A stretch of DNA of 61,944 nt, from NCBI GenBank assembly GCA_030154225.1, contig JASKKI010000005.1:1-61944 (forward strand), given 5' to 3'. The notes beneath the pieces are model-generated. The model saw only the letters and a list, made by a program, of their open reading frames with translations. It did not search any database and was not told the DNA's origin. The DNA is from Clostridia bacterium (lineage in GTDB: Bacteria; Bacillota; Peptococcia; Peptococcales; BICA1-8). This document shows, one piece after another, positions 20,766 to 61,316 of the stretch; position 1 is the stretch's first letter, and the number at the start of each line of letters is the position of its first letter. The position numbers and the translations under genes were made by a program.

Positions 20766-22166
20766 TTAAGTATTATCATTTTCAGAACTCCCGGCAAATT
20801 CTGTTTTGACTAGTTCTTTTTTGTTTTTGATTTTTTTAACCTTATTAGGTTTTTGAACTGGTTTAATAAGGATTCTACCTAAAGAATTGCGTAAAGTTAT
20901 GGTCTCAAAAACAACTTCTCCCCAGGTAGGATAATGAATTTGTTCTTCACTATTTTGATCCTCACCCTGAGTCTCAACAAACTCCTGTTTGATAGCAAAT
21001 ACAGCTAGTCCAGATGCAAGTAGGGTTAAACCGCCTGTAGTACCAAAAGTTAAAAAATTGCTTTTTTCCATTAATATTCCAAATACTGGGGGACCAATGG
21101 CCACTCCAAAAAATCTTACTGCTCCATAAAGGGATGTTATCATCCCCCTTTCTTCCATTGTTACTGAACTGGTTATTATTGTATTTAAACAAGTTAATAC
21201 TAAACCGCCGCCAATCCCGCCAATAACCAAGGCTGTAATAAAAATATAAGTATTATTTATAAAAAAAGGAATAATAAAATTGGATGTTGCCAGTAATATT
21301 AAGCCAGCTACAACTAATATTTTATAATTGCTGTTTTTCCTCTGGGTAACAATACCTGTAATTAATGAAGTTGCTGAAACGGCTAATACCGGTATGGCCA
21401 AAACTAAGCCTTTTGTTACACCTTCCAAGCCATAACGTTTTTCCAGATAATCCGATAAATAAAATAAGGTACCAAAAAGAGCAAATAACGACACCGAACC
21501 TGCTACAAAAGCACTTAATAAATGAACACCTTTTTCTCCAGAGATTTTTTTTAAAGCCTGTAAATATTCTTTAACCCTTTGACCTTTTTTATTGGTAGTA
21601 GGATCTTTTACTAAAAACCAGACTGCTAGAGCAATTGGAATACAAAGTACCGGAAAAACAAAAAACGTTGCATACCAGGCTATAAGTCCAACCAGGGAGC
21701 CTAATATAGGACTAACAACCTTGCCCAGACCATTTGAAGCCTCCAAAAGGCCTAATGCCTTACTCCTTTCACCTGTTACAAATATATCACTGGATAAAGC
21801 CATAGCGATAGGCGCCGTTCCGGCAGCTCCAATTCCCTGTAGTATTCTCCCTGCCATTATTACCAAATAGGAATTATTTAAAAACAGAATTCCTAATAAA
21901 GTTACAACCCCACCTAAACCATAAAGAATTAGTGAGGGAACAATTATCAGTTTCCTACTTATTCTATCTGATAAAAATCCGGCAAAAGGAATTACTAAAC
22001 CCGCTGGTACGGAAAATAAGGTTATAACCAGGCTTACCTTAAACTGTGATATATTTAATGCTGATTTCATTTGGGGTAAAACGGGAATCAGCATAGAATT
22101 ACCTAAAACCATAATTAACGGCACTCCAGCTAAGGCCGCTAAAGTAATTTTACTTTTTGTTTTCAA
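20766..22166 (-). CDS. MFS transporter with hydrophilic C-terminal tail
   Basis: 12 predicted TM segments and an MFS-like loop DRISRK. TTG start after GAGGAG. Confidence 0.75.
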   Translation of the reverse strand: MKTKSKITLAALAGVPLIMVLGNSMLIPVLPQMKSALNISQFKVSLVITLFSVPAGLVIPFAGFLSDRISRKLIIVPSLILYGLGGVVTLLGILFLNNSYLVIMAGRILQGIGAAGTAPIAMALSSDIFVTGERSKALGLLEASNGLGKVVSPILGSLVGLIAWYATFFVFPVLCIPIALAVWFLVKDPTTNKKGQRVKEYLQALKKISGEKGVHLLSAFVAGSVSLFALFGTLFYLSDYLEKRYGLEGVTKGLVLAIPVLAVSATSLITGIVTQRKNSNYKILVVAGLILLATSNFIIPFFINNTYIFITALVIGGIGGGLVLTCLNTIITSSVTMEERGMITSLYGAVRFFGVAIGPPVFGILMEKSNFLTFGTTGGLTLLASGLAVFAIKQEFVETQGEDQNSEEQIHYPTWGEVVFETITLRNSLGRILIKPVQKPNKVKKIKNKKELVKTEFAGSSENDNT

Positions 22167-29207: not shown

Positions 29208-29372
29208 ATGAAAGTTATATTAGCTGGTGGCATAGCTTTAGTCTTTCTTGGAGTTATCTATTATTTACCTTTGGGCACCTCATTAATTAAAAATAAAACC
29301 CTGCCTAAAGTGACAGGGATATTTTTGGTTGTATTAGGTGTTTATTTAATTTTTAGGGCTCTAACTCTTTAG
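29208..29372 (+). CDS. small two-TM membrane protein (54 aa)
   Basis: AAAGGTGG RBS. Sequence MKVILAGGIALVFLGVIYYL... Below the track cutoff. Its 3' end overlaps the convergent kinase gene by 20 nt. Confidence 0.4.
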   Translation: MKVILAGGIALVFLGVIYYLPLGTSLIKNKTLPKVTGIFLVVLGVYLIFRALTL

Positions 29373-30984
29373 TAGGACATTTAGGAAATGTTACTGTAAC
29401 TGTTGTTCCAATACCCTTCTTACTATTCATTACAATTGTTGCTCCATGGCTTTCTGCAATTTGATAACAAACAGAAAGACCAAGCCCTGTACCATTTTGT
29501 TTGGTTGTAACAAAAGGTGTGCTAACTTTGTCTAAAATTTCCTCTGGTATTCCCTCACCTTCATCCTCTATTTGGAGAATGATATTCTTTGGATTATTTT
29601 TTAACCTGATATAAAGATTTCCACCTTTCGGCATAGCCTCTATTGCATTATGAGTTAAATTAAGAATTAGCTGTTTAATTTCATTTTCATTACAAAATAG
29701 CTGAGCTTCATCAATTTCCAGGCGTAAATATACGTTTGATAAAAGGGCCTCTCTTTCTATTAATATTAATTGTTTTTCCAGAATATTTTTTAGATCACAT
29801 TTAACTAAAGTTCTGGAAGATTTTTTAGAAATGGATAAAAAGTCGATAATAATGGCATTACATCTTTCGATTTCAGAAATCAATAAATCCAATTGGGAGT
29901 CTGTTAATTTTTCTTTTGATCTTTGGGCAAGCTGAAGAAACCCTTTAATAGTAGTTAATGGATTTTTTATTTCATGAGCAATGCTGGCACCCATTTGTCC
30001 AACCAAATTTAATCTTTCCAGATTTTTTATTCTTTCATTAATTAATTCTTCAGATGTTACATCATAAAAGATTGCCATTGCATAAATAATGCTATCTCGC
30101 TGATCATAAATGGGTTGGGAAATAAATTCTATAAGTTTATTATTACGGATTATTTTCTCTTTAAAATAACTTTTACCATTGTGTAAGGTGTCTAGAATTA
30201 ATAAATCAGCAAAATTAAAACTGGGAAAAAGCTTATTAATGTATTGTTTTAAGGGAAAACCAATATAATTTTCCGGGGTTTCATTTTTTATATTGGCATA
30301 ATCCAAAGCTACCTGATTAATATGCACAATATTTTCTTGTTTATCTATGACCAAAATACAAAGGGGCATTTCATTAATTAAGTTTTGTAAGAGAGAGCTT
30401 TGTTTAATAAGTTTCTCTTGTGTTTTATATAGGTTATTTCTAACAGTATCTTCAATTTTAACAAAGATACCTAATAACCAACTAATAATAACATAAATTA
30501 CTGCAAACATTAAATCTGTCTCAATAGTATAACCTAGTGGTAAGTGATCAACAACTAAAAGATCTAATAACAAGTTTACTATACCAATTATTGCTGAAAA
30601 GGTAACACTGATTCTTAAATTAAACTTAATAGCAGAAATTATTATGGGAATTAAATATAAAAATCTTAGTTCAAAATAACTGGTATTTACAAATAAAAAA
30701 GTAATTAATAAAAAATTTAATAAAATTATAGCAAAATCCAGATGATAATTCTGTTTACCAAGATATATACTTAAATAACCTATGCTAATCAAGAATACGA
30801 TAATTAAAAAAGTTACTATAAATGCCTGAAAAAAATTATAACTTTCAAAACCAAAATATTTAAATATTATTATTAAAGACATTAAACTAAATAAAACTTG
30901 AACAGTAAATATGTAATTATTTATTATTTCTTCTCTGGTTTTTTTGTGCATTAAACTAAGCACATCCTTCGGGAAAATATACAA
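29353..30984 (-). CDS. orphan sensor histidine kinase (multi-TM sensor, PAS, HisKA, HATPase)
   Basis: H-box ASIAHEIKNPLTTIKGFLQLA plus N, G1 and G2 boxes. No response regulator is adjacent. The start may be the ATG at 30951. Confidence 0.8.
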   Translation of the reverse strand: MYIFPKDVLSLMHKKTREEIINNYIFTVQVLFSLMSLIIIFKYFGFESYNFFQAFIVTFLIIVFLISIGYLSIYLGKQNYHLDFAIILLNFLLITFLFVNTSYFELRFLYLIPIIISAIKFNLRISVTFSAIIGIVNLLLDLLVVDHLPLGYTIETDLMFAVIYVIISWLLGIFVKIEDTVRNNLYKTQEKLIKQSSLLQNLINEMPLCILVIDKQENIVHINQVALDYANIKNETPENYIGFPLKQYINKLFPSFNFADLLILDTLHNGKSYFKEKIIRNNKLIEFISQPIYDQRDSIIYAMAIFYDVTSEELINERIKNLERLNLVGQMGASIAHEIKNPLTTIKGFLQLAQRSKEKLTDSQLDLLISEIERCNAIIIDFLSISKKSSRTLVKCDLKNILEKQLILIEREALLSNVYLRLEIDEAQLFCNENEIKQLILNLTHNAIEAMPKGGNLYIRLKNNPKNIILQIEDEGEGIPEEILDKVSTPFVTTKQNGTGLGLSVCYQIAESHGATIVMNSKKGIGTTVTVTFPKCPTKELEP

Positions 30985-36420: not shown

Positions 36421-37332
36421 TTAGGCTTTGAGAGCCCCTACAAGCTCTCTAATATCTTTTATTCCTTCTTTATCTAACCATTCTTCCAGCCCTGTAATTA
36501 CCTCTAAAGGTGTGAAAGGATTAACAAAGTTTCCGGCTCCGATTGCCACAGCCGAAGCTCCTGCAAGCATAAATTCTATAGCGTCTTCAAAACTTGTTAT
36601 CCCCCCCATCCCTATAATGGGAACTTTTACCGCTTTAGAGACCTGATATACCATTCTGACGGCTACAGGCTTTACTGCCGGTCCCGATAAGCCCCCCAAT
36701 ACGTTAGCCAAAACAGGGCGACGATTTTTAATATCAATAGCCATACCTAAAATTGTATTGATTAATGATACGGCATCAGCCCCTTCACTCTCTACAGCCC
36801 TGGCAATTTCTGTTATGTCAGTAACATTGGGAGATAATTTGACAATAAGGGGTAATTTGGTCTTGGCCCTGACCCTTTTGACCACCAAGGCAGCAGTATT
36901 AGGATCTGTTCCAAAGGCCATACCCCCTCCTTTAACATTAGGACAAGAAATATTGATTTCCAAGGCATCAACACCTGGTACCCCATCCAGGCGGGTAGCC
37001 ATTTCTTCAAATTCATCAAAGGAATAACCGGAAATATTAGCGATGATAGCTACATCAAATTGTCGCAGCCAGGGAATTTCCTCTTCAATAACTCTGTCTA
37101 TACCTGGGTTTTGCAATCCTATGCTGTTTAGTATTCCTGCCGGTGTTTCAGCAAGGCGGGGTGTAGGATTACCAAGCCTGGGTTCTAATGTTGTCCCCTT
37201 GGTCATAATTCCACCCAGCCGGCTTATATCATAAAGCCGGTTATATTCCTGTCCAAACCCATAACATCCAGAAGCAGTAAGAACAGGATTTTTTAATTTT
37301 ATTCCAGCAACTTCTACTGCTAAATTAGTCAT
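36421..37332 (-). CDS. pyrD: dihydroorotate dehydrogenase B, catalytic subunit
   Basis: ATG at 37332 overlaps the pyrK stop (ATGACTAA). Contains [15 protein letters not shown] and class 1B features. Confidence 0.9.
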
Positions 37333-38116
37333 CAATAATCACCTCACTGCTGGTAAAGACCGGGCCATCATGACAAACCTTTTTATAGGTAATAGTACCA
37401 TCTTCATTACGAACTTTACAAGCACAGCCCAAGCAAGCCCCAATTCCACAAGCCATACGTTCTTCCAGAGAAACCTGGCAGGGAATCAAATTTTCCTTGG
37501 TTAATTTAATTACCCCTTTGGTCATGGGTAAAGGTCCACAACAATATACCTGATCAATTTTTGTATTAAGAATAAACTCCTGCAAAATTTCAGTTACAAA
37601 CCCTTTTGTCCCATACGATCCATCATCTGTGGTTACCTGAACTTTACATCCCAATTGCTGGAAATCGGCTACACATAATAACTTTTCTCGGGTCTGGGCT
37701 CCTAGTAAAACATAAACTTCTTTACCGTCCTTAACCAGTTCTTCAGCTAAAGCCGGTAAAGGTGCAATACCACATCCTCCACCAACAATAGCTACTTTTT
37801 TATAATCTTTTTTCCAGTAAAAACCATTTCCTAGAGGACCCATGACTTCAAGCTCACCCTGGGTTATCTGGCTTAATAAATTAGTACCTCTACCAATAAC
37901 TTGATAAACCAGTGCTATGGTACCTTCAGCCTTATTAATCCTGTGTATACTTATAGGACGTTTTAATAATGGATCTAAAGTATTTGAAGTCTTTAACATC
38001 ACAAACTGCCCAGGTTCTGCTTCCCTGGCTATGGAAGGTACAGCTAACACCATGCGATAAAAATCAGGTAAAATTTTCTGATTCTCTAAAATTATAGCCT
38101 TAATTGAGAATACCAT
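37325..38116 (-). CDS. pyrK: dihydroorotate dehydrogenase B, electron-transfer subunit
   Basis: ATG at 38116 after AGGGGGGAA. C-terminal Cys cluster C-x5-C-x2-C...C for a 2Fe-2S centre. Confidence 0.85.
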
Positions 38117-39422
38117 CACTAATTCCCCCCTTTTTCCAATCCTCGCCCATCCAAACAATTTTTCCTCCTACCATGGTCAAAACAGCTTTCCCTTTAAGCT
38201 GCCAGCCGTTAAATGGCGTATTCTTTCCTTTGGAATAAAACTGGTTGGAATCCACAACCCACTCTTTTTCTAAGTCAAGTATGGTAATATCGGCATCATA
38301 CCCAATAGCTAATCTACCTTTGTTTTTCAATCCGAATATTTCCGCCGGCCTGATGGTCCAGGCTCTAATAGCTTCATTTAATGTAATTATATCCTTATCA
38401 ACTAAATGAGTAAGTACCAGTCCCACTCCTGTTTCTAAGCCAACAATCCCGTTAGCGGCATTGGTTAAATTAACCTCTTTTTCTTCTAAACTATGGGGTG
38501 CATGGTCTGTGGCTATACAATCAATAGTGCCATCCCTGAGGGCTTCCCTTAAAGCCTCAACATCCTTTTTTGTTCGTAAAGGAGGCCGCATTTTACCATT
38601 TGAACCAACTTTTAAAACATCTTCCTCGGTTAAAATCAAATGATGGGGAGTTACCTCAGCAGTAACCCTAATACCTTGTTCTTTTGCCTGTCGAACAAGG
38701 CGGGCTGCTTCGGCGGTACTTATATGACCAATATGAATATGTCCACCGGTACGGGCAGCCAGCAGTATATCCCTGGCTACGATAATGCTTTCCGATACAT
38801 CAGGATCCCCTTTTACCCCCATCCTAAAAGCAATATCTCCATCATTGATGACGGTTCCCGAAGACAAATACATATCTTCGGCATGTTGGCTAATTGGTAA
38901 ACCTAAATCTTTGGATCTTAACAAAGCCCTGTACATTAGCTCCGCATTTTGAACTACCCTGCCGTCATCAGACAGGGCAACCACACCTGCCTCTTTCAAG
39001 GAGTAAAAATCAGTAAGAGCTCTACCCTCGGATTCCAAGGTAATGGCCCCTATGGGATAAACATTGACATAAGCTTCTTTTTGGACTCTATTCATAAAAT
39101 TTTCAATTAGCTCAGGATTATCCAGAACAGGAATGGTATTGGGCATACAGGCAATACTGGTAAAACCCCCTCCGGCTGCAGCCAAGGTACCTGTAGCCAG
39201 CGTTTCTTTATAAGTCAGGCCGGGATCTCGCAAATGTACGTGCAAATCTATAAATCCGGGACAAATAACCTTGCCCCGCCCATCAATTATTTCAACATTT
39301 TCATTAATTGCGATATCTGTATCTAAAGCTTTTATTTTGCGGTTTTCAATAAGAATATCTACTATTTTATCTAGGTTATCTGCCGGATCGATGACCCTAC
39401 CACCTTTGATTAAAATTTTCAT
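38100..39422 (-). CDS. pyrC: dihydroorotase, second copy
   Basis: Motifs DLHVHLRDPG and ATDHAPH. Roughly half the residues are identical to the copy at 59108..60394, judged by eye. Confidence 0.85.
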   Translation of the reverse strand: MKILIKGGRVIDPADNLDKIVDILIENRKIKALDTDIAINENVEIIDGRGKVICPGFIDLHVHLRDPGLTYKETLATGTLAAAGGGFTSIACMPNTIPVLDNPELIENFMNRVQKEAYVNVYPIGAITLESEGRALTDFYSLKEAGVVALSDDGRVVQNAELMYRALLRSKDLGLPISQHAEDMYLSSGTVINDGDIAFRMGVKGDPDVSESIIVARDILLAARTGGHIHIGHISTAEAARLVRQAKEQGIRVTAEVTPHHLILTEEDVLKVGSNGKMRPPLRTKKDVEALREALRDGTIDCIATDHAPHSLEEKEVNLTNAANGIVGLETGVGLVLTHLVDKDIITLNEAIRAWTIRPAEIFGLKNKGRLAIGYDADITILDLEKEWVVDSNQFYSKGKNTPFNGWQLKGKAVLTMVGGKIVWMGEDWKKGGISDGILN

Positions 39423-39563
39423 CAATACCGCTCCTATTTGATAGAGTAATGTGACTTTTAAGATATAGTGTTATATAATAGTTCAAGATTTTTTTTCGCA
39501 AACCTTTGCATTAATTGGCTAAACATAATGGCGGCCATTTATCTAAATGTGATAACTTATTTT

Positions 39564-40775
39564 CTATTTTCTTTTTTCATTTACTTCTAAAATCTTGAGG
39601 CTCAGGAAAAGAATTAACCTGGCTTCACCTGAATCCAAATCCATTCCTGTAATTTCACTTATTCTTTTTAAGCGGTATTGAAGTGTCTTATAATGGACAT
39701 ATAATTCATTGGCCGTTTTCTGGCTGTTTCCGGCATTTTTTAAATAACATTTTAAAGTTTTTACCAGTTCTGTACCTTGTTCCCGGTCATAGTCCAGTAA
39801 ATTTCTTAAACCTTTGGGTATATAATCCCAAACATTATCTTGAAGGGCAAATTTATGGATTAACCTGTATACTCCGATATCAGAAAAAAATGTGCAGGAG
39901 TTTTCCCCCCAGTATTTAAGTCCGAATTCCACGGCTTCTTCAGCCTGCAGGTAACTTTTTCTGGCCTCTAAAAGATTGGAAAAACTTTCTCCAATACCTA
40001 TACAAACAGGCTTTTTAAATACTGTAGAAAAAACACCTTTTAAATGAACAAAAAAGTCACGTAAATAAAAATCATCATTACCTTCTAAATCTATCAAGAG
40101 GACAATACGATTATTGGCTATGGTCGCTATTATACTGTACCCTTCTTTAAGGAGTCCTTTTTCCAATGGCTTTAGAATTCTGCTAAGCTCATCGGTAACA
40201 ACTTTTTTGATAAGCTGGATAATAGCCATGGTATAATTACTGGAAACGGACAAACCTAATAAACCGATGCGTCTTTTAGCAACAGTCTCTGATTTAATAT
40301 GATTCAAAAGCAAGTCTTCAACAAAATTATCCCGCAGGCTTCTTTCCAGGTCATTTATTATACTGTGTTCTAATGTACGCTCATTTTCCTTTGTAATAAT
40401 CTCAGCCATAATGGGGCGAATTATATCTTTATATGTAACCCCTGGTTCAAATTTAATTAAAGGCAAATTATTACTATTGGCAGCATCCAACATTGCCTGG
40501 GGAATAGTTTTTAAAAATCTCTCGGCTTTTATAGCCAGGGCAGCAATACCTTTAGATGCTAACTGGTTTATCAAATCTTTCTGTTCATCTTCATTTTTTG
40601 GTAGGGCAAAACCACTAGTCAATACCAATTCTTTTCCTTTTAACCACTGGATAATATCTGGAACTTCAAAAACCGTTACGTATTCAATTTCCCTATTTAA
40701 ACCACTAGCCCCGGCTATAACTTTGGCACCCTTTAATCCACCAATTTCTAAGGCTTCCTGCACACTAATTCCCAT
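39564..40775 (-). CDS. PucR-family transcriptional regulator
   Basis: C-terminal HTH region NSQKTANELYVHYKTLQYRLKRISEITG. Confidence 0.75.
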   Translation of the reverse strand: MGISVQEALEIGGLKGAKVIAGASGLNREIEYVTVFEVPDIIQWLKGKELVLTSGFALPKNEDEQKDLINQLASKGIAALAIKAERFLKTIPQAMLDAANSNNLPLIKFEPGVTYKDIIRPIMAEIITKENERTLEHSIINDLERSLRDNFVEDLLLNHIKSETVAKRRIGLLGLSVSSNYTMAIIQLIKKVVTDELSRILKPLEKGLLKEGYSIIATIANNRIVLLIDLEGNDDFYLRDFFVHLKGVFSTVFKKPVCIGIGESFSNLLEARKSYLQAEEAVEFGLKYWGENSCTFFSDIGVYRLIHKFALQDNVWDYIPKGLRNLLDYDREQGTELVKTLKCYLKNAGNSQKTANELYVHYKTLQYRLKRISEITGMDLDSGEARLILFLSLKILEVNEKRK

Positions 40776-51084: not shown

Positions 51085-51465
51085 CTAAACTGCTTCTTCT
51101 CCGGTTTCTCCGGTACGTACCCTGATAACTTCCTGAAGCGGTAAAACAAAAATTTTACCGTCACCAATTTTTCCTTCTTTGTTAACACTGATAATTGTAT
51201 CTACTGCTTTCTGCACATCCTTGTCTTTAACAATAAGTGTTAACATGCGCTTGGGTATCAGCCTGCCCCCTTTGAGCAGGCTTTCTAACAAAGCATCTCG
51301 TAATTCTATATCTTCTTCCACCTGGGGAACAAGCTTCAGCCCTTTGAGTTTTTTCCCGCGACCTATTACTTTAGCAGCGGTAAGACCGTTAAATCCAGCT
51401 TTGACTAAAGCATCTTTCGTTTTTGCTACCTTGTTCATACGAATAATGGCTATTATTTCTTTCAT
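51085..51465 (-). CDS. nifI2: PII-like nitrogenase regulator NifI2
   Basis: GlnB-like protein, 126 aa, between nifI1 and nifD. Confidence 0.8.
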   Translation of the reverse strand: MKEIIAIIRMNKVAKTKDALVKAGFNGLTAAKVIGRGKKLKGLKLVPQVEEDIELRDALLESLLKGGRLIPKRMLTLIVKDKDVQKAVDTIISVNKEGKIGDGKIFVLPLQEVIRVRTGETGEEAV

Positions 51466-51476
51466 AGTTTCACCCC

Positions 51477-51803
51477 TTAAAGTAGCTTTTCGCCGGTACT
51501 AATGGTATAAACCTCTTCCACAGGGTTAATGAAAATTTTTCCATCACCGAATGAACCATTTTCTCCTGTCTTGGCATGCTTGATGATTATACTAACTACA
51601 TCATCCTTTTCAGCGTCTTCAACTACGATTATGATCATTTCCTTAGGAATCTCATCATAGACAATATTGCCCACCTGAACTCCTCTCTGCTTCCCTCTAC
51701 CAACTACATCCAGTTTTGTCACTGCAGGAAAACCTGCACTGGCCAATTCTTCCAGTATCTCTGTAGATTTTTCCGGTCGAACAATAGCTTTAATCATTAA
51801 CAT
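51477..51803 (-). CDS. nifI1: PII-like nitrogenase regulator NifI1
   Basis: GlnB-like. ATG at 51803 lies 8 nt after GGGAG. Confidence 0.8.
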   Translation of the reverse strand: MLMIKAIVRPEKSTEILEELASAGFPAVTKLDVVGRGKQRGVQVGNIVYDEIPKEMIIIVVEDAEKDDVVSIIIKHAKTGENGSFGDGKIFINPVEEVYTISTGEKLL

Positions 51804-51828
51804 CAGCTTCACTCCCTAGAAAAGTTTT

Positions 51829-52671
<843 letters not shown>

Positions 52672-52739
52672 TTATTTATAAAACAGTACAAACAAAACTT
52701 ACCGAAAATACTTTTTCTTACTTTAGCCACTCCTTTCTT

Positions 52740-52808
52740 TTTAAAGAAAAAGACGCTATTCTATTTACTGTGAAAGCATAAGTTACTGCTTTCAAGAAAT
52801 ATAGCGTC
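52740..52808 (-). terminator. intrinsic-terminator-like hairpin inside the nifH leader (proximal)
   Basis: Minus strand: GACGCTAT...GAAAGCA-loop-TGCTTTC...ATAGCGTC followed by TTTTTCTTT, about 90 nt upstream of the nifH ATG. Confidence 0.55.
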
Positions 52809-52837
52809 ATTGCCAATGATTATTCATTTGTATTTGG

Positions 52838-52911
52838 TAAATAAAAAAATGCTTTTATCTATTGTAAGGAACTACACACACTAATCCGGGTTTATTCCTT
52901 CCGATAAAAGC
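52838..52911 (-). terminator. intrinsic-terminator-like hairpin (distal) upstream of nifH
   Basis: Minus strand: GCTTTTATC...AAGGAA-loop-TTCCTT...GATAAAAGC followed by ATTTTTTTATTT. Confidence 0.55.
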
Positions 52912-52987
52912 ACCTTTGCCAAGTTTATTCATTTATTATATAACAGAGAATAATTCAATATTACTGTTATATTTTTTATATGTTTGA

Positions 52988-53016
52988 ATTATAGTTTTTT
53001 CTTTTTTTTAAGTCAA
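52988..53016 (-). promoter_or_regulatory. consensus sigma-A-type promoter facing nifH
   Basis: Minus strand: TTGACT, a 17-nt spacer, then TATAAT. Confidence 0.55.
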
Positions 53017-53275
53017 TTAGGAAATTAAAAATATTATGTATACATTCAATAGTTAAGAAAAATCTACTTCGTCTATCTTTCAGTACCTACAGTAGCTACA
53101 GTACTACCGTGCTACAGGAAATAAAAGATTAAGATAATAGCTAGCCACTATCAACTAACAACTTAGCCCAAAATTTATACTTTCTTTAAAACTAATAAGT
53201 TCCGGTTAGTGCCATGAGATACGTAGTACCGGTGAGTAAAAGTAAAAGTTATCCATAATTACGAATTTATTTTTC

Positions 53276-53458
53276 CTATACGACAAGAAAGCCTATAGGA
53301 TTAAATAAATCCTGAAAATTAGCCCCAATTTTCAAGGCTTCTTTAAGAAGGTCTCCCGTTTTCAGGAATCTGTTGAAACCCTCCAAGTAGTAAGCAGTAA
53401 TATGGAAATCCATAAAATCCTTCACTTCAAATATTAGTTTATTGTGCATTTTGCACAA
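53276..53458 (-). CDS. doubtful small ORF downstream of pyrE
   Basis: 60-aa track ORF with no recognisable RBS and no family resemblance. Confidence 0.15.
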   Translation of the reverse strand: MCKMHNKLIFEVKDFMDFHITAYYLEGFNRFLKTGDLLKEALKIGANFQDLFNPIGFLVV

Positions 53459-53464
53459 TTTTCT

Positions 53465-54040
53465 TTAGCTTTTTCTACTACCTGGTTTATCTAAAGGTAT
53501 TCCTTGTTTACACAGCGGACATTCTTCAGGGGTATAGTTATTCATAGTTACTTTTACTAAAGCTTGAAAGGGAACAGATAATTTAGCCAGGCCGTTACTT
53601 CTATCTACTATGGCTCCAACTCCGATAACGTGAGCACCATAACTTTCAACTAAATTAACTACTTCCTGAGATGAACCCCCTGTAGTAATAACATCTTCCA
53701 CCACTAATACTTTTTGCCCAGGTTTGATTGTGAACATCCTTCTTAATTTCATTTTCCCGTTTTCTCGCTCTGTAAAGAGCCCAGGAACACCTAGGTGTCT
53801 GGCCACCTCATAAGCTACAATAATACCTCCCAAAGCCGGTCCGATTACCAGATCAGGTTTCTCGTGTCGGAACTTTTCAGCAATTGCCCGACACACCTTT
53901 TCTGATAAGTTAGGTTCTTTTAATAAAAGGGCACATTGAATATATATTTCACTATGCAAACCGGAACTGAAGACAAAATGTCCTTCTTTTAGAGCATCTA
54001 CCTTTTTTAACATATTTAATATCTCTTTACCTTCTAACAT
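53465..54040 (-). CDS. pyrE: orotate phosphoribosyltransferase
   Basis: PRPP motif VLVVEDVITTGGS. Confidence 0.9.
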   Translation of the reverse strand: MLEGKEILNMLKKVDALKEGHFVFSSGLHSEIYIQCALLLKEPNLSEKVCRAIAEKFRHEKPDLVIGPALGGIIVAYEVARHLGVPGLFTERENGKMKLRRMFTIKPGQKVLVVEDVITTGGSSQEVVNLVESYGAHVIGVGAIVDRSNGLAKLSVPFQALVKVTMNNYTPEECPLCKQGIPLDKPGSRKS

Positions 54041-54041
54041 C

Positions 54042-54755
54042 TCACTCTTCTCCTTCCATTTCTTTTATTATTCTTAAAGCAGCTTGACAGGGATTACTAT
54101 TTTTGGTTATAGGCCTACCCACTACCAGGTAGTCAGCACCCATCTTAATGGCTTCCCCAGGTGTAGTAATTCTTTTTTGATCCTGGAGCTCAGTCCAGCA
54201 GGGCCTGACTCCCGGACAAACAGTAATAAATTCATTACCACAAACAGACTTGATATTAGCGGCCTCCCGGGGTGAACATACTACTCCATCTAGTCCTGCC
54301 TTCTGACATAACTGGGACCAGTGCAGCACAGTCTCATCAATGGAATATTTAAAACCTACCTTGTTAAAACTCACTTCATCAAAACTGGTTAAAACCGTTA
54401 CCCCGATAACTAAAGGAGGAGTATATCCATTATTTACAGCAGAGTTTTTCACTGTCTCCATGGTTGTAGCCAGCATTACTTCCCCGCCGGAAGCGTGAAC
54501 ATTAAACATATCTACTCCTAAACCGGCCGCCCATTTGGCCGCCTGGGTTATGGTGTTGGGAATATCATGAAATTTAAGATCTAAAAAAACCTTTTTGTCC
54601 TTAGCTTTTAAAAAATCTAAGACCTCACCCCTGGTATTTAAGAAAAGTTCTAACCCAACTTTATAATAATTAACCGTTTCTCCTAAAGTATTAACCAGCT
54701 CTTGAGCTTTAGCTAGCTCAGGAACATCCAGGGCCACTATCAGTTTGTTTTTCAT
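54042..54755 (-). CDS. pyrF: orotidine 5'-phosphate decarboxylase
   Basis: Motifs LIVALDV and DLKFHDIPNT. Confidence 0.9.
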   Translation of the reverse strand: MKNKLIVALDVPELAKAQELVNTLGETVNYYKVGLELFLNTRGEVLDFLKAKDKKVFLDLKFHDIPNTITQAAKWAAGLGVDMFNVHASGGEVMLATTMETVKNSAVNNGYTPPLVIGVTVLTSFDEVSFNKVGFKYSIDETVLHWSQLCQKAGLDGVVCSPREAANIKSVCGNEFITVCPGVRPCWTELQDQKRITTPGEAIKMGADYLVVGRPITKNSNPCQAALRIIKEMEGEE

Positions 54756-54779
54756 AGTCTTTCTCCTTTCATGTTTATC

Positions 54780-57700
54780 TTAATCCACCTTTCCACTGTA
54801 TTCCTGCAATGGTTTGACTTTACTCATAGATTCTAAGACTTCTACAACAGCCACTACCAGGTCTAAGGAAGTTAGGCAGGGAACATTGAATTCAACTGCT
54901 GCCCGGCGAATTCGAAACCCGTCCCTGGCCGGAATTTTTCCTTTAGTCAGGGTGTTAATTACAAGATCTATTTCTCCCCTTTTGATCACATCTACTACAT
55001 GGGGGCTACCTTCCTTGATTTTATTAACTTCTTCCACCTTTAAGCCTTCTTTTCTTAAAAATTCAGCTGTACCCCTAGTGGCAACTATAGAGAACCCCAG
55101 GCCTTTCAACCTTTTAAGGACAGGTAGAGCTTCTTGTTTATCTTTATTAGCGATAGTAGCCAGGACTTTTCCTCTTCGAGGAATTACATATCCTGCTCCT
55201 ATTAATGCTTTATACAAGGCTTTAGTAGGGTCTTTATCCAGGCCCAGCACTTCCCCTGTTGATTTCATCTCCGGTCCCAGGGAAGTTTCCACATCTATGA
55301 GCTTATTAAAGGAAAAAACGGGCATCTTGACGGCGACCAGGTCCCTGGGTTTAACCAGGCCGGGTTCATAGCCCAGTTCCTCTAAAGTTTTTCCCAGGAT
55401 AACCTGAGTAGCCAGGTAAACCATGGGTATACCCGTAACTTTACTCAAATAGGGAACTGTCCGGCTGGAACGGGGATTTACTTCGATTACGTAAATTTCT
55501 TCTTCATGGATAACATATTGGATATTTAACAAGCCTTTAATATTCAAGGCAACAGCCAGCTCTTTTGTGTACCGAACCAGTTTATCTATTTCTTGCTGTT
55601 CCAGAGATAAAGGTGGATACATGGCAGTACTGTCACCGGAATGGACTCCTGCTCTTTCGATATGCTCCATTATTCCGGGGATTAGGACCTCCTGGCCATC
55701 ACAAATTGCATCCACTTCTACTTCTTTGCCTATCAAATACCTATCCACCAGAACAGGATGGGCTGGTGAAATTTTAACGGCATTAGCCAGGTATTCTTCC
55801 AGTTCTTCTATAGAGTACACTATTTCCATGGCCCTGCCTCCTAAAACATAGGAAGGTCTGACCAATACAGGAAAACCTAAATCTTCGGCAATTTTCTTAG
55901 CTTCTGCCGCTGTCCGAGCCGTTTTCCCCAATGGGCGGGCAATATTTAGTTTTTCTAAAATACTATCAAATTTCTCCCTATCTTCAGCAATATCAATATT
56001 CTCCACCTGGGTACCCAGTATTTTTACTCCTGCATCATGTAGAGGTTTAGCCAGATTTACGGCAGTTTGACCACCGAACTGGACAATTACACCCAGGGGT
56101 TTTTCCTTTTCAATAACATTTAAGACATCTTCTTTAGTTAAGGGCTCAAAATACAAGCGATCAGAGGTATCAAAATCTGTACTAACGGTTTCCGGATTAT
56201 TATTAATTACTATTGATTCCAGCCCGGCCTTTTCTAAAGCCCAGGCACAGTGTACAGAACAGTAATCAAACTCTATACCCTGGCCGATCCTTATCGGCCC
56301 ACTACCCAGAACCAGGACTTTTTCTTTGTTTCCGGACAGGTTTACTTCATCGGTTTCATTATAACTGGAATAATAATAAGGTGTTACTGCTTCAAATTCA
56401 CCGGCACAGGTATCTACCATCCTAAAAACCCCTTGTATCTTCCCCTTTTTCCTTAATTCAGCTACCTCTTCCTCGGAAACACCCCAAATCCCGGCAATCT
56501 GGATATCACTAAAGCCCAGTTCTTTCGCCTTTAATAGTATTTCTCTGTCAAACTTATATTGGGGAAGGATCTCCTTTTCCCATTTGACTAGGTTATTAAA
56601 TTTATTTAAAAAGAACCTGTCGATCTGGGTTAACCGATAAATTTGCTCCACTGTATAACCCCTAGAAAAAGCTTCACCTATTAGATACAGTCTTTCATCA
56701 TCAGGATTAGCTAGTCTTTCTTCCAATTTATCTGTTGGGATATCTGCAAACTGAGGATTTAAAAACCCTCTAACATCCAGTTCCAGAGAACGGATACCCT
56801 TTTGTAATGCTGTTTCCAGGTTTCTACCGATAGCCATAACTTCTCCCGTTGCTTTCATCTGGGAACCTAAACTTCTGTTGCCAGACTGGAACTTATCAAA
56901 GGGCCAGCGGGGTATTTTTACCACTACATAATCTAAAGTTGGTTCAAAGGCGGCCTGAGTTTTACCAGTTACACTATTGGCAATCTCATCCAGATGATAA
57001 CCCAAGGCAATTTTAGCAGCTATTTTGGCAATGGGATAACCTGTTGCTTTAGAAGCCAGGGCACTGGACCTACTGACCCGAGGATTGACCTCAATTACTA
57101 CATATTCAAGCTTATGAGGATTTAAAGCAAATTGTATGTTACAACCACCCTCGATTCCCAAAGCCCTAATGATTTTTATCGAGGCAGTTCTTAACATTTG
57201 ATATTCTACATCAGATAAAGTCTGGCTGGGTGCAACTACGATACTATCTCCTGTGTGTACTCCAACAGGGTCAATATTTTCCATATTACAAATAGTTATA
57301 CAGGTATCATTGGCATCTCTCATTACTTCGTATTCTATTTCTTTCCAGCCTTTAACACTCTTCTCAATCAAAACTTGGTTAATAGCACTATACTTTAGCC
57401 CTTTACTTACTATTTCTTTAAGTTCTGTATCATTAGCAGCAAACCCACCACCAGAACCGCCCAAGGTATAGGCTGGACGTACAATTACCGGATAACCGAT
57501 TTGCTCTGCCAGTGCCTTGGCTTCTTTAATATCACTTACAATTCCACTGTTAGGAACAGGCTCCCCTATTTCTTTTAACAACTCTTTAAACAATTCCCTG
57601 TCTTCCGCCTTTCGAATAGCTTCTAGGGGAGTTCCTAAAAGCTTGACACCAGCTCTTTCCAGGATTCCACTTTCCGCTATTTCTTTAGCCAGATTAAGGC

Positions 57701-57983
57701 CAATCTGACCACCCAGGGTTGCCAAGAGTCCCTGAGGTTGCTCTGTATAAATGATCTCTTCTATGAATTCCTTGGTTAAAGGTTCTATATAAACCCTATC
57801 GGCCATGTTTTCATCAGTCATGATAGTAGCAGGATTACTGTTGACCAGGACCACTTCTATACCTTCTTCTCTTAAAGCCCGGCAGGCCTGGGTGCCGGCA
57901 TAATCAAATTCTGCTGCCTGGCCGATGATAATGGGACCTGAACCGATAACCAGGACCTTTTTGATATCCTGTCTTTTAGGCAT
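54780..57983 (-). CDS. carB: carbamoyl-phosphate synthase large subunit
   Basis: 1067 aa, two ATP-grasp halves, canonical N-terminus [21 protein letters not shown]. Confidence 0.95.
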
Positions 57984-58014
57984 GCTATTTCTCCTTTCAA
58001 GTAAATTTCTCGGG

Positions 58015-59115
58015 TCAGCATCTCATGTATGCAATTCTGCAAGATACATCCAGCCTATGAAGAAATTCTTCAAACAAATACGCCGAGTCCTGGGGGCCTG
58101 GGGCTGCTTCTGGATGGTATTGAACACTGGAAATGGGTAAACTTTTATGACGTAATCCTTCAACTGTATTATCATTGAGATTGATATGGGTAACTTCAAC
58201 GTCCTTGCTCAAACTTTCCGGGTCTACAGCAAACCCGTGGTTTTGAGAAGTAATATAGACCCTTCCTGTTTTTATGTCTTTGACCGGATGATTACCACCC
58301 CGATGACCAAATTTTAATTTATAGGTTTTACCACCCAGGGCTAAACCTAAAAGCTGGTGGCCCATACATATTCCGAAAATGGGTATTTCATGTTGGATTA
58401 GTTCTTTTATAGTTTCCACCGCATAAGGAACATCTTGAGGATCACCAGGTCCATTGGATAAAAGAATTCCGTCAGGTTTATAACCCAGTATTTCAACGGC
58501 ACTAGCCTGAGCCGGTACTACAATAACAGTACAACCATGCTGCTGTAACTTCCTTAAAGAATTGTTTTTTACACCGAAGTCCATAACTACCACTCTGGTA
58601 GGTCCACCGGGTAGGGTATAGGTAAAAGGGGTACTTACTTCTTTTATTAACTGCTGTCCTGATAAAGGAGGAACTGTTTTTACCATCTCCTTTAGTTCCT
58701 CTAAATCAGTACCGTCATTGGCAATAATTCCACCCATTGTACCATGGTAACGGAGATGTTTGGTTACAGCTCTGGTATCTATCCCTTGGATACCCACTAA
58801 TTTATGCTCTTTTAGGAATTCCTGGAGACTTTCACTGGCACGCCAGTTGCTAGGACCTTCGCAACATTCTTTAATAATCAGACCCCGGGCGAAAATATTG
58901 CGACTTTCCCAATCTCCGTTATTAGTCCCATAATTTCCTATTAAGGGATAAGTGAAAGTAATAATTTCTCCGGCATAGGAAGGATCCGTTAAGATTTCCT
59001 GGTAACCTACCATACTGGTATTAAAAACTATCTCTCCCTGGGCTCTCCCTGTCCAACCCAGGCCTTCACCGCAAAAAACTGTACCATCCGTTAATACAAG
59101 GTAAGCTTTAGCCAT
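58015..59115 (-). CDS. carA: carbamoyl-phosphate synthase small subunit
   Basis: ATG at 59115 overlaps the pyrC stop (ATGGCTAA). GATase motif GICMGHQLL. Confidence 0.9.
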
Positions 59116-60394
59116 TAACTTCACCCTTTTTCATTATTATTTTCCCATCTTTAATGGTCATAACTGGCCAACCAGTTAACTCCCAGCCTTTATAAGGTGT
59201 ATTTTTACCTAAAGAATAAAAGTTGTCCGGATTAACTTTTTTTGTTAACCGGGAGTCAATAACCGTAATATCAGCTATTTTACCGACCTGTAAAGAACCC
59301 CTGTCTATATTCAGTATCCTGGCTGGTGCAGTACTTAAAGTATTTACTAGTTGTAAAAGATCTAAATATCCCGCTAAATAAAGCTGCCAGGCTAGGGGTA
59401 CCGCGGTTTCCAGACCTGTTATTCCAAATGGTGCATAAACAAATTCTACTTCCTTTTCTTCCCGGGCATGGGGTGCATGGTCTGTGGCAATACAATCAAT
59501 GGTTCCATCCTGTAAACCTTTAATCAAAGCCTCGACATCCTCTTTTGTTCTAAGGGGTGGGTTTACTTTAGTAGCAGTATCATACCCTGTAACAGCTTCA
59601 TGGTTTAAGGTAAAATGATGGGGTGTAACTTCAGCTGTTACTTTAACCCCCCTTTTTTTGGCCGCGCGGATAATTTCTACACCTCCCCGGGTGGTAACAT
59701 GGGCAATATGGATTCTGCTGTTTGTTAATTCGGCCAGTCTTATATCCCGGTCAATGATAATTTCTTCAGCTTCTTTGGGGATACCCGCTAAGCCTAATTT
59801 GGTACTAACCAGTCCTTCATGCATAACTCCCGAACCACCTAAATCTACATCTTCACAGTGAGTGATTATCAATAGGTCCAGCATTTTGGCATAATCTAGA
59901 GCCCGGCGCATAACACCAGAATTGGTAACAGTGAACCCATCATCAGATAAGGCCACTGCACCACATTCTTTTAATATAGCAAACTCTGTAAGTTCTTTAC
60001 CCTTCTGGCCTTTAGTAATACAGGCTATTGGATATACATTGACCAGGTCATACCTTTTAGCCCTGGCCAAAATCAGCTCTATTACTCCCTCATTATCAGC
60101 CACTGGTTGAGTATTGGGCATACAGGCAATTCCCGTAAAACCTCCTCTGCTGGCAGCCTGACAGCCTGTAAAAATAGTTTCTTTATGTTCATATCCCGGT
60201 TCTCTTAAATGTACATGCATATCAATAAAACCAGGGGCCACTACTTTATCTTTAGCATCAATTATTTCCATTTCTGGAGAGGCAGATATATTTTTATCTA
60301 ATTTGACCACTTTTCCATTTTCAATAAGGATATCCATCTGTTCACAAATATTTTGACTGGGATCAACCAATAAACCACTTTTAAGCAGAAGCAT
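59108..60394 (-). CDS. pyrC: dihydroorotase
   Basis: Motifs [10 protein letters not shown] and ATDHAPH. Overlaps the pyrB stop. Confidence 0.9.
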
Positions 60395-61316
60395 TTATTT
60401 TACCTCCTCCCATTGCGTACAGTAAAGCCATGCGAATTGCCACTCCATTGGTTACCTGTTCCTCTATTACTGACTGGTAGCTTTCAGCAACATCGGCTGT
60501 TATTTCAACCCCTCTATTCATGGGACCCGGATGCATTACTAAAGCATCTTCTTTGGCCAATTTCAGCTTGTTTTTATTTAATCCAAAAAGCTTACTATAT
60601 TCCCGAATAGAAGGGAATAAACCACTTTTCTGTCTTTCCAGCTGAATTCTCAGCATCATAACTACATCAGCATCTTTTAAGGCCTTTTGTATATCCCAGG
60701 TTACATTAACTCCAAGTTTGTCCACCTGAGAAGGCATCAAGGTAGGAGGTCCACAGATCCAGACATCTGCCCCTAAAGCGTTAAGTCCCCAGATATTTGA
60801 GCGGGCTACCCTACTGTGTAAGATATCACCAATTATAGCTACTTTTTTTCCCCTTATTGTTCCCTTGTGTTCTAAGATGGTAAATATGTCCAGTAAGGCT
60901 TGAGTTGGATGCTCGTGAGTTCCGTCCCCGGCATTAATAACCCGAGCCTTTACTGCTTGAGCTAAAATATGGTGGGCGCCACTGGCAGGATGCCGCATAA
61001 CAACTACATCTGCCCCCATACTTTCAATGGTTTTAGCTGTATCTCGTAGGCTTTCACCTTTAGCTACACTGCTAGAACTGGCACTGATGTTGATAACATC
61101 TGCTCCCATGTATTTACCGGCCAATTCAAAAGAACTGCGGGTACGAGTGCTGTTTTCATAAAACAGGTTTATTATTGCTTTTCCCCTTAAAGTGGGAACC
61201 TTTTTTATTTCCCGGTTAATAATCTCTTTCATTGATTTAGCATTAGTGAAAATTTCATGTATTTCCTGAATAGATAAATCCGACAAGCTGATTAGGTCTT
61301 TACTATTTATACCCAT
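60381..61316 (-). CDS. pyrB: aspartate carbamoyltransferase catalytic subunit
   Basis: Motifs STRTRSSFE and HPTQALLD. Confidence 0.95.
   Translation of the reverse strand: MGINSKDLISLSDLSIQEIHEIFTNAKSMKEIINREIKKVPTLRGKAIINLFYENSTRTRSSFELAGKYMGADVINISASSSSVAKGESLRDTAKTIESMGADVVVMRHPASGAHHILAQAVKARVINAGDGTHEHPTQALLDIFTILEHKGTIRGKKVAIIGDILHSRVARSNIWGLNALGADVWICGPPTLMPSQVDKLGVNVTWDIQKALKDADVVMMLRIQLERQKSGLFPSIREYSKLFGLNKNKLKLAKEDALVMHPGPMNRGVEITADVAESYQSVIEEQVTNGVAIRMALLYAMGGGKINASA

Follow-up and report, generated by a model that had tools for sequence, protein, structure and literature searches.

Antitermination by ANTAR-domain proteins is a known mode of control for nitrogen fixation genes. 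In Geobacter sulfurreducens, GnfR, which combines a response-regulator receiver with an ANTAR domain and is phosphorylated by GnfK, binds RNA with CAGGCAANGGCGCC overlapping terminators before nifH, and gnfK and gnfR mutants show premature termination (Ueki & Lovley 2010, PMC2995071). The RNA targets of ANTAR proteins have been defined as hairpins that overlap a terminator and carry a hexaloop whose first nucleotide is A and whose fourth is G (A1/G4) (Ramesh et al. 2012, PMC3369931). In Desulfotomaculum, Table S2 of that study places ANTAR RNA matches, some of them tandem, ahead of genes listed as "nitrogenase subunits; two copies of P-II". G4 is flipped out onto a tyrosine that is conserved, and the minimal binding motif has been redefined as a single hexaloop (Walshe et al. 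2022, PMC8934654). Here, we describe the nifH leader of a Clostridia bacterium, contained in a stretch of 61,944 nucleotides (nt) from contig JASKKI010000005.1, the whole of which we call the window. The leader carries two such hexaloop hairpins, each overlapping an intrinsic terminator.

Several related systems help to place this leader. The eut locus of Enterococcus faecalis, controlled by EutV/EutW, likewise has several attenuators in which a hairpin termed P2 overlaps the terminator, G4 is recognized by the ANTAR domain, and termination is the default (PMC3369931, PMC8934654). Unlike the leader in the window, EutV needs a second hairpin for its recruitment, P1, located 5–12 nt upstream, it controls ethanolamine use, and the loop and stem sequences differ. 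NasR at nasF (Klebsiella), AmiR at amiE (Pseudomonas), and NasT are similar in that an ANTAR protein overrides a leader terminator and thereby turns on a nitrogen-source operon, but these systems have a single attenuator, other sensor modules (a NIT domain, or the partners AmiC or NasS), and other pathways. NifA/sigma-54 and the GlnR of Paenibacillus control the same type of operon in response to nitrogen, but they act at initiation through DNA sites, namely an upstream activating sequence (UAS) plus −24/−12 elements and TGTNA-N7-TNACA, respectively. The switching of nif genes in anaerobic Bacillota is far less understood than the NifA/sigma-54 circuit of Proteobacteria, and the leader described here offers a clean and compact example.

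Probably, the leader of nifH-nifI1-nifI2-nifDKENB consists of two ANTAR-type attenuators in series behind a sigma-A promoter, served by an ANTAR antiterminator whose gene is unlinked. The predicted promoter lies on the minus strand, as do all leader elements below, with the −35 hexamer TTGACT at 53011..53016, a 17-nt spacer, and the −10 hexamer TATAAT at 52988..52993. It matches 11 of the 12 consensus positions (53016..52988) and is one of only two sites with at least 11/12 on both strands of the 62-kb window. Given the usual 7-nt distance to the −10 hexamer, transcription would start at about 52981, which would give a leader of about 331 nt.

Folding of the whole leader (332 nt) is better than that of shuffled sequences (z = −4.4). 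Hairpin 1 at 52938..52972 has a perfect 9-bp stem, ATATAACAG/CTGTTATAT, an inner 4-bp stem, and a UUGAAU loop (−9.5 kcal/mol, z = −4.6), and it likely acts as a 5′ stabilizer or folding insulator. Intrinsic terminator 1 occupies 52839..52917, where a stem at 52917..52845 runs into U7-A-UUU at 52849..52839, and folds with about −23 kcal/mol (−22.7, z = −2.6). Intrinsic terminator 2 occupies 52743..52808, with its stem at 52808..52752 followed by TTTTTCTTT (RNA UUUUUCUUU) at 52751..52743, and reaches about −23 kcal/mol as well (−22.4, z = −3.6). A simple terminator scanner missed both, only because their apical parts exceed its loop limit of 3–8 nt. The initial annotation of this DNA had proposed the TTGACT-17-TATAAT promoter about 330 nt upstream of nifH and two tandem intrinsic terminators before the gene, and both proposals hold. 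Its first hairpin is also present, with coordinates (52976..52941) that are about 3–4 nt off from 52972..52938.

What that annotation did not contain is the motif that lies directly at the 5′ side of each terminator, TTGGC[AAAGGT]GCT or TTGGC[AATGAC]GCT, with the hexaloop in brackets. In unit 1, the P2 antiterminator hairpin GGC[AAAGGT]GCT lies at 52909..52920, and its part 52917..52909 also belongs to the 5′ arm of terminator 1. In unit 2, the P2 hairpin (T)GGC[AATGAC]GCT(A) at 52803..52814 overlaps the 5′ arm of terminator 2 over 52808..52803. Both hairpins have 3–4 bp and a hexaloop whose first and fourth nucleotides are A and G, which agrees with the definition of an ANTAR target (at least 3 bp, A1/G4). 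The terminator 5′ arm opens with the loop and 3′ arm of P2, which make up its initial 9 nt in unit 1 and 6 nt in unit 2, so that the terminator starts inside P2 and the two structures are mutually exclusive, again as in ANTAR targets.

On its own, P2 is weak, with −2.3 and −2.9 kcal/mol (the latter for unit 2) versus about −22 kcal/mol for the terminators, and termination is thus the default state. When P2 is enforced in the folding, the residual stem stops 4 nt before the U-tract in unit 1 and about 10 nt before it in unit 2, and in this model it should no longer be able to terminate. The two units are near-repeats of the form AAATGAATAA-(4–5 nt)-TTGGCAA[A/T]G[G/A][T/C]GCT, with identical AAATGAATAA flanks at 52925..52934 (unit 1) and 52820..52829 (unit 2), while the terminator stems that follow have diverged.

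We scanned both strands of the window for NNC-A..G..-GNN in which the outer two pairs are complementary and a terminator begins inside the hairpin. Four matches were obtained, namely the two leader units and two within coding sequence. The leader units are the only intergenic hexaloop-plus-terminator matches in the window and a further ~19 kb of the same contig. The two coding-sequence matches, at 21714..21725 (minus strand) and 61080..61091 (plus strand), are probably due to chance.

The match to the Geobacter site extends to the sequence level. TTGGCAAAGGTGCT and TTGGCAATGACGCT of the window each agree with 9 of the 13 specified positions of CAGGCAANGGCGCC. The mismatches are confined to the 5′ flank, to loop positions 5 and 6, and to a change of G-C to G.U, and hence the hairpin is kept. 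In both cases, nitrogen fixation genes are controlled, the nifH leader holds an intrinsic terminator, and a hexaloop hairpin (GGC[AANGGC]GCC in Geobacter) lies on its 5′ side; the GnfR gene has not been described as adjoining nif in Geobacter. The differences are that GnfL/GnfM activate a sigma-54 promoter for the Geobacter leader, whereas the window leader has a promoter of the sigma-A type, two tandem attenuators, a G.U closing pair (GCU versus GCC), and TT instead of CA in the 5′ flank. In addition, the host is a low-GC metagenome-assembled genome (MAG) whose NifH is closest to Bacillota, and binding and antitermination are predicted here only.

The leader also resembles the Firmicutes predictions of Ramesh et al., which share the A1/G4 hexaloop on a stem of at least 3 bp overlapping a terminator and include tandem matches before the D. 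acetoxidans nif cluster (PMC3369931). Those predictions came from a two-hairpin covariance model (P1, linker, and P2), whereas the window leader is without a canonical P1 and belongs to another organism and sequence. Given the demonstration in Geobacter in 2010 and the prediction for Firmicutes in 2012, the mechanism class is already known, including its use for nif. The non-classical control suggested by the initial annotation is therefore apt in the sense of non-NifA control and not in the sense of a new mechanism. Two modest points of interest are the combination of a sigma-A promoter with tandem attenuators and the apparent dispensability of a structured P1 in Bacillota nif leaders.

A blastn comparison of the 650-nt upstream region with 80 nifH loci gave no leader-level similarity. 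The leaders were therefore compared by motif and structure, using 79 other nifH loci and setting the 450 nt upstream of nifH against everywhere else in those loci. The unit occurs 44 times upstream of nifH, in 28 of the 79 loci and across many lineages (1.25/kb), and at 0.048/kb elsewhere, which corresponds to a 26-fold enrichment before nifH. Calculated from this background rate, the chance of finding two units in a 331-nt leader is about 1e-4. The units are often tandem (2–4 per leader), and 1–4 copies precede nifH in many genomes. The closest NifH relatives, Propionispora and Pelosinus (86–88% identity), each have two tandem AGC[AAWGNN]GCT-terminator units. The comparative alignment of nifH leaders that had been recommended for this locus hence found no sequence similarity, but a unit that is enriched in other Bacillota and covaries there.

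Covariation was evaluated in 55 distinct nifH-leader instances collected irrespective of pairing. At the second position of the stem, 22 of these pair as G-C and 21 as A-U. The covariation score is 0.426 versus 0.215 ± 0.027 in shuffles (none of 500 as high), and slid registers give at most 0.19. The covariation indicates that the helix is selected as an RNA structure. The nif-type consensus is G-R-C[A-A/G-W-G-R-N]G-Y-C, which is narrower than that of eut sites. The survey favours the view that nif genes in these organisms are commonly regulated after initiation, and the hexaloop-terminator unit provides a simple sequence signature for annotating it.

Some leaders of the survey carry terminator-overlapping hairpins with the same stem but without A at loop position 1. 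These are GGC[GAGGGC]GCC, GGC[CAGGGC]GCC, or GGC[TCAGAC]GCC at about −165 and −83 (L004), −47 (L053), and −78 (L064) relative to nifH, and they may represent a variant of the ANTAR loop rule or the use of another register. A decamer, AATATTGCGA, was seen upstream of nif leaders at about −430 (L001), −415 (L006), and −285 (L004) relative to nifH, in Propionispora, Pelosinus, and Desulforamulus. It may be a promoter or operator element, and it is absent from the window.

In other genomes, ANTAR genes are linked to nif genes. In 5 of 80 loci (L016, L038, L053, L055, and L064), a Pfam-confirmed ANTAR protein (PF03861) is encoded on the strand of nifH and within about 6 kb upstream of it. A profile search of a set of 5.8 billion proteins yielded 1161 ANTAR proteins, and two further loci come from this search. 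In L211, an ANTAR gene stands directly before nifH-nifI1-nifI2-nifDK, and in L214, ANTAR genes adjoin glnB-amtB and glnA. The genes L038 4249 and L211 7846 immediately precede nifH-nifI1-nifI2, L055 2532 and L064 4665 lie within about 1 kb upstream of nifH, and L214 7921 immediately precedes glnB-amtB.

These ANTAR genes have hexaloops of their own. Those of L038, L055, L064, and L211 are preceded by AGC[AUAGNN]GCU or a close variant plus a terminator, and that of L214 by GGC[AUCGAA]GCU plus a terminator. This arrangement indicates autoregulation, and the ANTAR-nif and ANTAR-amtB operons accordingly look autoregulated from their sequences. Many of the ANTAR proteins at these five loci have no Pfam receiver-domain match.

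Several results weigh against ANTAR control of the leader in the window. No ANTAR domain was detected among the window's open reading frames (ORFs) of at least 80 aa by local hidden Markov model and phmmer searches, with Pfam run on 45 ORFs. On a 156-kb metagenome contig, the 10 kb beyond the window on either side are also free of ANTAR genes, which makes about 82 kb in all. A homologue search did not identify an ANTAR protein from this organism. A canonical upstream P1 hexaloop hairpin of at least 3 bp was found for neither unit, and EutV requires P1 for antitermination in vivo (PMC3369931, PMC8934654). Comparisons with contigs and metagenome runs found no moderately diverged relatives of the leader, and the comparative support is therefore at the level of the motif across distant taxa and not at the level of this leader. 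Finally, our search found no RNA runs holding the sequence. The search for ANTAR-type antiterminators proposed in the initial annotation thus found linked genes only in other nif loci.

Two ANTAR candidates, P0061 and P0042, were set aside as they come from other organisms, with the neighbourhoods ANTAR-nifH and ANTAR-glnB-amtB/glnA. Within the window, a histidine kinase is encoded at 29353..30984 (minus strand), with HisKA and HATPase_c domains, an N-terminal region of about 320 aa that matches nothing, and no adjacent response regulator. It is a possible partner of an unlinked ANTAR response regulator.

The lack of an ANTAR gene in the ~82 kb and of a canonical P1 would also fit attenuators read by something else, i.e., a non-ANTAR RNA-binding protein or a small-molecule or tRNA sensor that stabilizes the small hairpin or an alternative antiterminator. 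Both units, moreover, carry the 10-nt AAATGAATAA, which is outside the published ANTAR motif. We nevertheless regard such a factor as unlikely, for the conserved and covarying hairpin has exactly the A1/G4 hexaloop and C-G closing pair of ANTAR sites and agrees with the GnfR site, and other nif loci have ANTAR genes linked to this element. Even at E ≤ 10, no riboswitch or T-box of Rfam was matched. The Rfam covariance search, which had been suggested beforehand, returned no family at gathering score over the whole window. At E ≤ 10, it gave only two chance-level eukaryotic matches in 52000..54000, neither inside the nifH leader. The option of an RNA sensor raised in the initial annotation is consequently without support.

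The P1 question deserves a closer look. In unit 1, the flank offers only a 2-bp UA[AAUGAA]UA hexaloop 5 nt upstream of P2, and in unit 2, only a 1-bp version of it. The segment common to both flanks, AAAUGAAUAA, contains the A1/G4 hexamer AAUGAA, and AAATGAATAA in unit 1 is possibly a degenerate P1 or recruitment element. Hairpin 1 was rejected as a P1 candidate, since its loop UUGAAU is not of the A..G.. type and it lies 17 nt from P2. Across the survey, a canonical P1 accompanies 7 of the 44 nifH-leader units versus 2.8 ± 1.6 in shuffles, and a relaxed 2-bp P1 accompanies 14 of the 44 versus 7.0 ± 2.3. A covariance model of the dual hairpin was not used, as the variable linkers and loops were misaligned in the underlying MAFFT alignment. 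In Geobacter, too, only one conserved sequence has been given as the GnfR site (PMC2995071).

As P1 is rare across nifH leaders, nif-type sites may generally rely on P2 alone. We tentatively suggest, as a possibility to which we give modest weight, that ANTAR attenuators of the nif type in Bacillota, these two among them, dispense with a structured P1 and act through a single conserved G-R-C[A-A/G-W-G-R-N]G-Y-C hexaloop, here together with the single-stranded AAAUGAAUAA flank. If so, they would be a mechanistic variant outside the dual-hairpin requirement of EutV and would form a distinct "nitrogen" subclass of ANTAR sites, in which tandem copies could compensate for weaker recruitment. A search for further members of such a regulon, using AATGAA-N3-7-TTGGCAAWGRYGCY in metagenome contigs, gave mostly coding-sequence noise among the matches listed, with none from this organism's samples.

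Protein-mediated antitermination, one of the mechanisms considered in the initial annotation, is supported by the A1/G4 hexaloops on both terminators, their enrichment and covariation before nifH, and the match to the GnfR site. In the working model, the sigma-A promoter would fire and hairpin 1 would form at the 5′ end of the leader. With fixed nitrogen present, the regulator would be inactive, both terminators would form, and only leader RNAs of ~140 nt and ~240 nt would be made. When nitrogen is limiting, an ANTAR dimer encoded at another site in the genome would become active and capture each nascent GGC[A..G..]GCU hairpin. Capture of P2 would keep 6–9 nt from the terminator, which requires them to close its stem at the base beside the U-tract, and readthrough into nifH would follow. 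Two attenuators in series would multiply the tightness of the off state and sharpen the response to regulator concentration. From the model, one would expect this subsurface/shale MAG to encode an ANTAR regulator that is unlinked to nif and to have a wider nitrogen regulon.

The ~140-nt product of terminator 1 could alternatively be an independent small RNA (sRNA) with a function in trans, e.g., titration of a regulator in the way that EutX/Rli55 sequesters EutV. ANTAR-sequestering sRNAs exist (PMC8934654), and a strong promoter followed by a strong terminator should give abundant ~140-nt RNA whenever the regulator is inactive. In the terminated RNA, however, the hexaloop nucleotides are buried in the terminator stem. 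The unit is repeated directly downstream, co-oriented with nifH and with no promoter in between, and the 1–4 copies of it in front of nifH across many genomes are what a leader acting in cis would show. Rfam gave no sRNA match. Short terminated leaders are an expected by-product of attenuation. Nothing specific favours the separate ~140-nt sRNA put forward as an option in the initial annotation, and we consider it highly improbable.

Control at initiation found no support in DNA sites around the leader. A sigma-54 promoter (TGGCAC-N5-TTGCW) is missing from 52650..53465 at up to 2 mismatches, so that no −24/−12 element for NifA was found there (the TGT-N10-ACA UAS was not searched separately). 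The GlnR/TnrA operator TGTNA-N7-TNACA is missing from the same region at up to 1 mismatch, and its count over the whole window is at chance (35 observed versus 34.9 expected). Both absences had been noted by eye in the initial annotation and are borne out. An exact sigma-54 consensus, TGGCACGCCAGTTGCT, was seen at 58836..58851 (plus strand), antisense within carA. About 0.06 exact matches are estimated by chance in the window, and no obvious gene lies downstream of it on the plus strand.

The terminators might instead be constitutive, ending readthrough from pyrBC-carAB-pyrFE or a short unrelated transcript, with the true nifH promoter downstream of them. This explanation draws on the upstream region, as pyrE ends at 53465 on the same strand and is not followed by a convincing terminator before the nif promoter. 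No U-tract accompanies the hairpin at 53459..53441 on the minus strand, and 53150..53040 folds no better than shuffles. The promoter evidence points the other way, as the minus strand showed no promoter-like site from 52743 to 52650 and the region's best promoter is upstream of the terminators. Constitutive terminators would also leave the hexaloop at the 5′ base and the 26-fold enrichment before nifH unexplained, and we hold this possibility to be very unlikely. With regulated attenuators as the preferred reading, the terminators would additionally insulate nif from readthrough of the pyr operon, itself without a clear terminator, and such insulation may well be a secondary benefit.

The hairpin at the pyrE stop codon, ATTGTGCA-TTT-TGCACAAT at 53441..53459, is a perfect 8-bp structure. 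Its T-run is present only on the plus strand, which means that no obvious terminator serves the pyr operon on the minus strand ahead of the nif promoter. A repeat-rich patch with CTGTAG/GTAC, CCTGTAGCACGGTAGTACTGTAGCTACTGTAGGTACTG, occupies 53080..53117 (minus strand), about 70–100 nt upstream of the −35 hexamer. An activator or repressor that acts on the nif promoter could bind the DNA here; as a pyr-operon terminator (53117..53080), the patch was rejected because it folds no better than shuffles. A small ORF after terminator 2 (GTG at ~52727, 21 codons) was also discarded, as its only Shine-Dalgarno-like sequence abuts the start codon with no spacing.

The controlled operon and its surroundings are on the minus strand. 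The pyrB-pyrC-carA-carB-pyrF-pyrE genes (61316..53465) are followed by an 815-nt intergenic region and then by nifH at 51829..52650, the first gene of the operon (273 aa; PF00142, E = 8.6e-130). Its Shine-Dalgarno sequence AAGGAGG was read at 52660..52666. The P-II family genes nifI1 (51812..51477) and nifI2 (51465..51085) come next. Downstream of nifI2, nifDKENB, fdx (ferredoxin), an anfO-like gene, and two nifV genes extend to about 41387.

The same sequence is found in contig JASUSL010000010.1 of MAG GCA_030446105.1 and was also seen in metagenomes from the subsurface, shale gas, and oil fields. Five other public contigs of this organism carry the leader with 100% identity, and more distant metagenome runs have only the coding part of nifH in common with the window; hence, no covariation is available within this leader itself. 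Among the species representatives found, none exceeds 88% identity to the NifH of the window; the nearest are Propionispora, Methanocella, Desulforamulus, and Pelosinus.

Two other features of the neighbourhood were recorded. Directly after pyrE, an ORF of 57–60 aa (MHNKLIFEVKDFMDFHITAYYLEGFNRFLKTGDLLKEALKIGANFQDLFNPIGFLVV) at 53276..53458 (minus strand) is called as a gene in public contigs and has no Pfam match. Downstream of the nif cluster, 36421..40775 (minus strand) encodes a PucR-family regulator (39564..40775), dihydroorotase-like, pyrK-like, and pyrD-like proteins, and a TRAP transporter. This set is a second pyrimidine-related group, distinct from the pyr operon upstream of nif.

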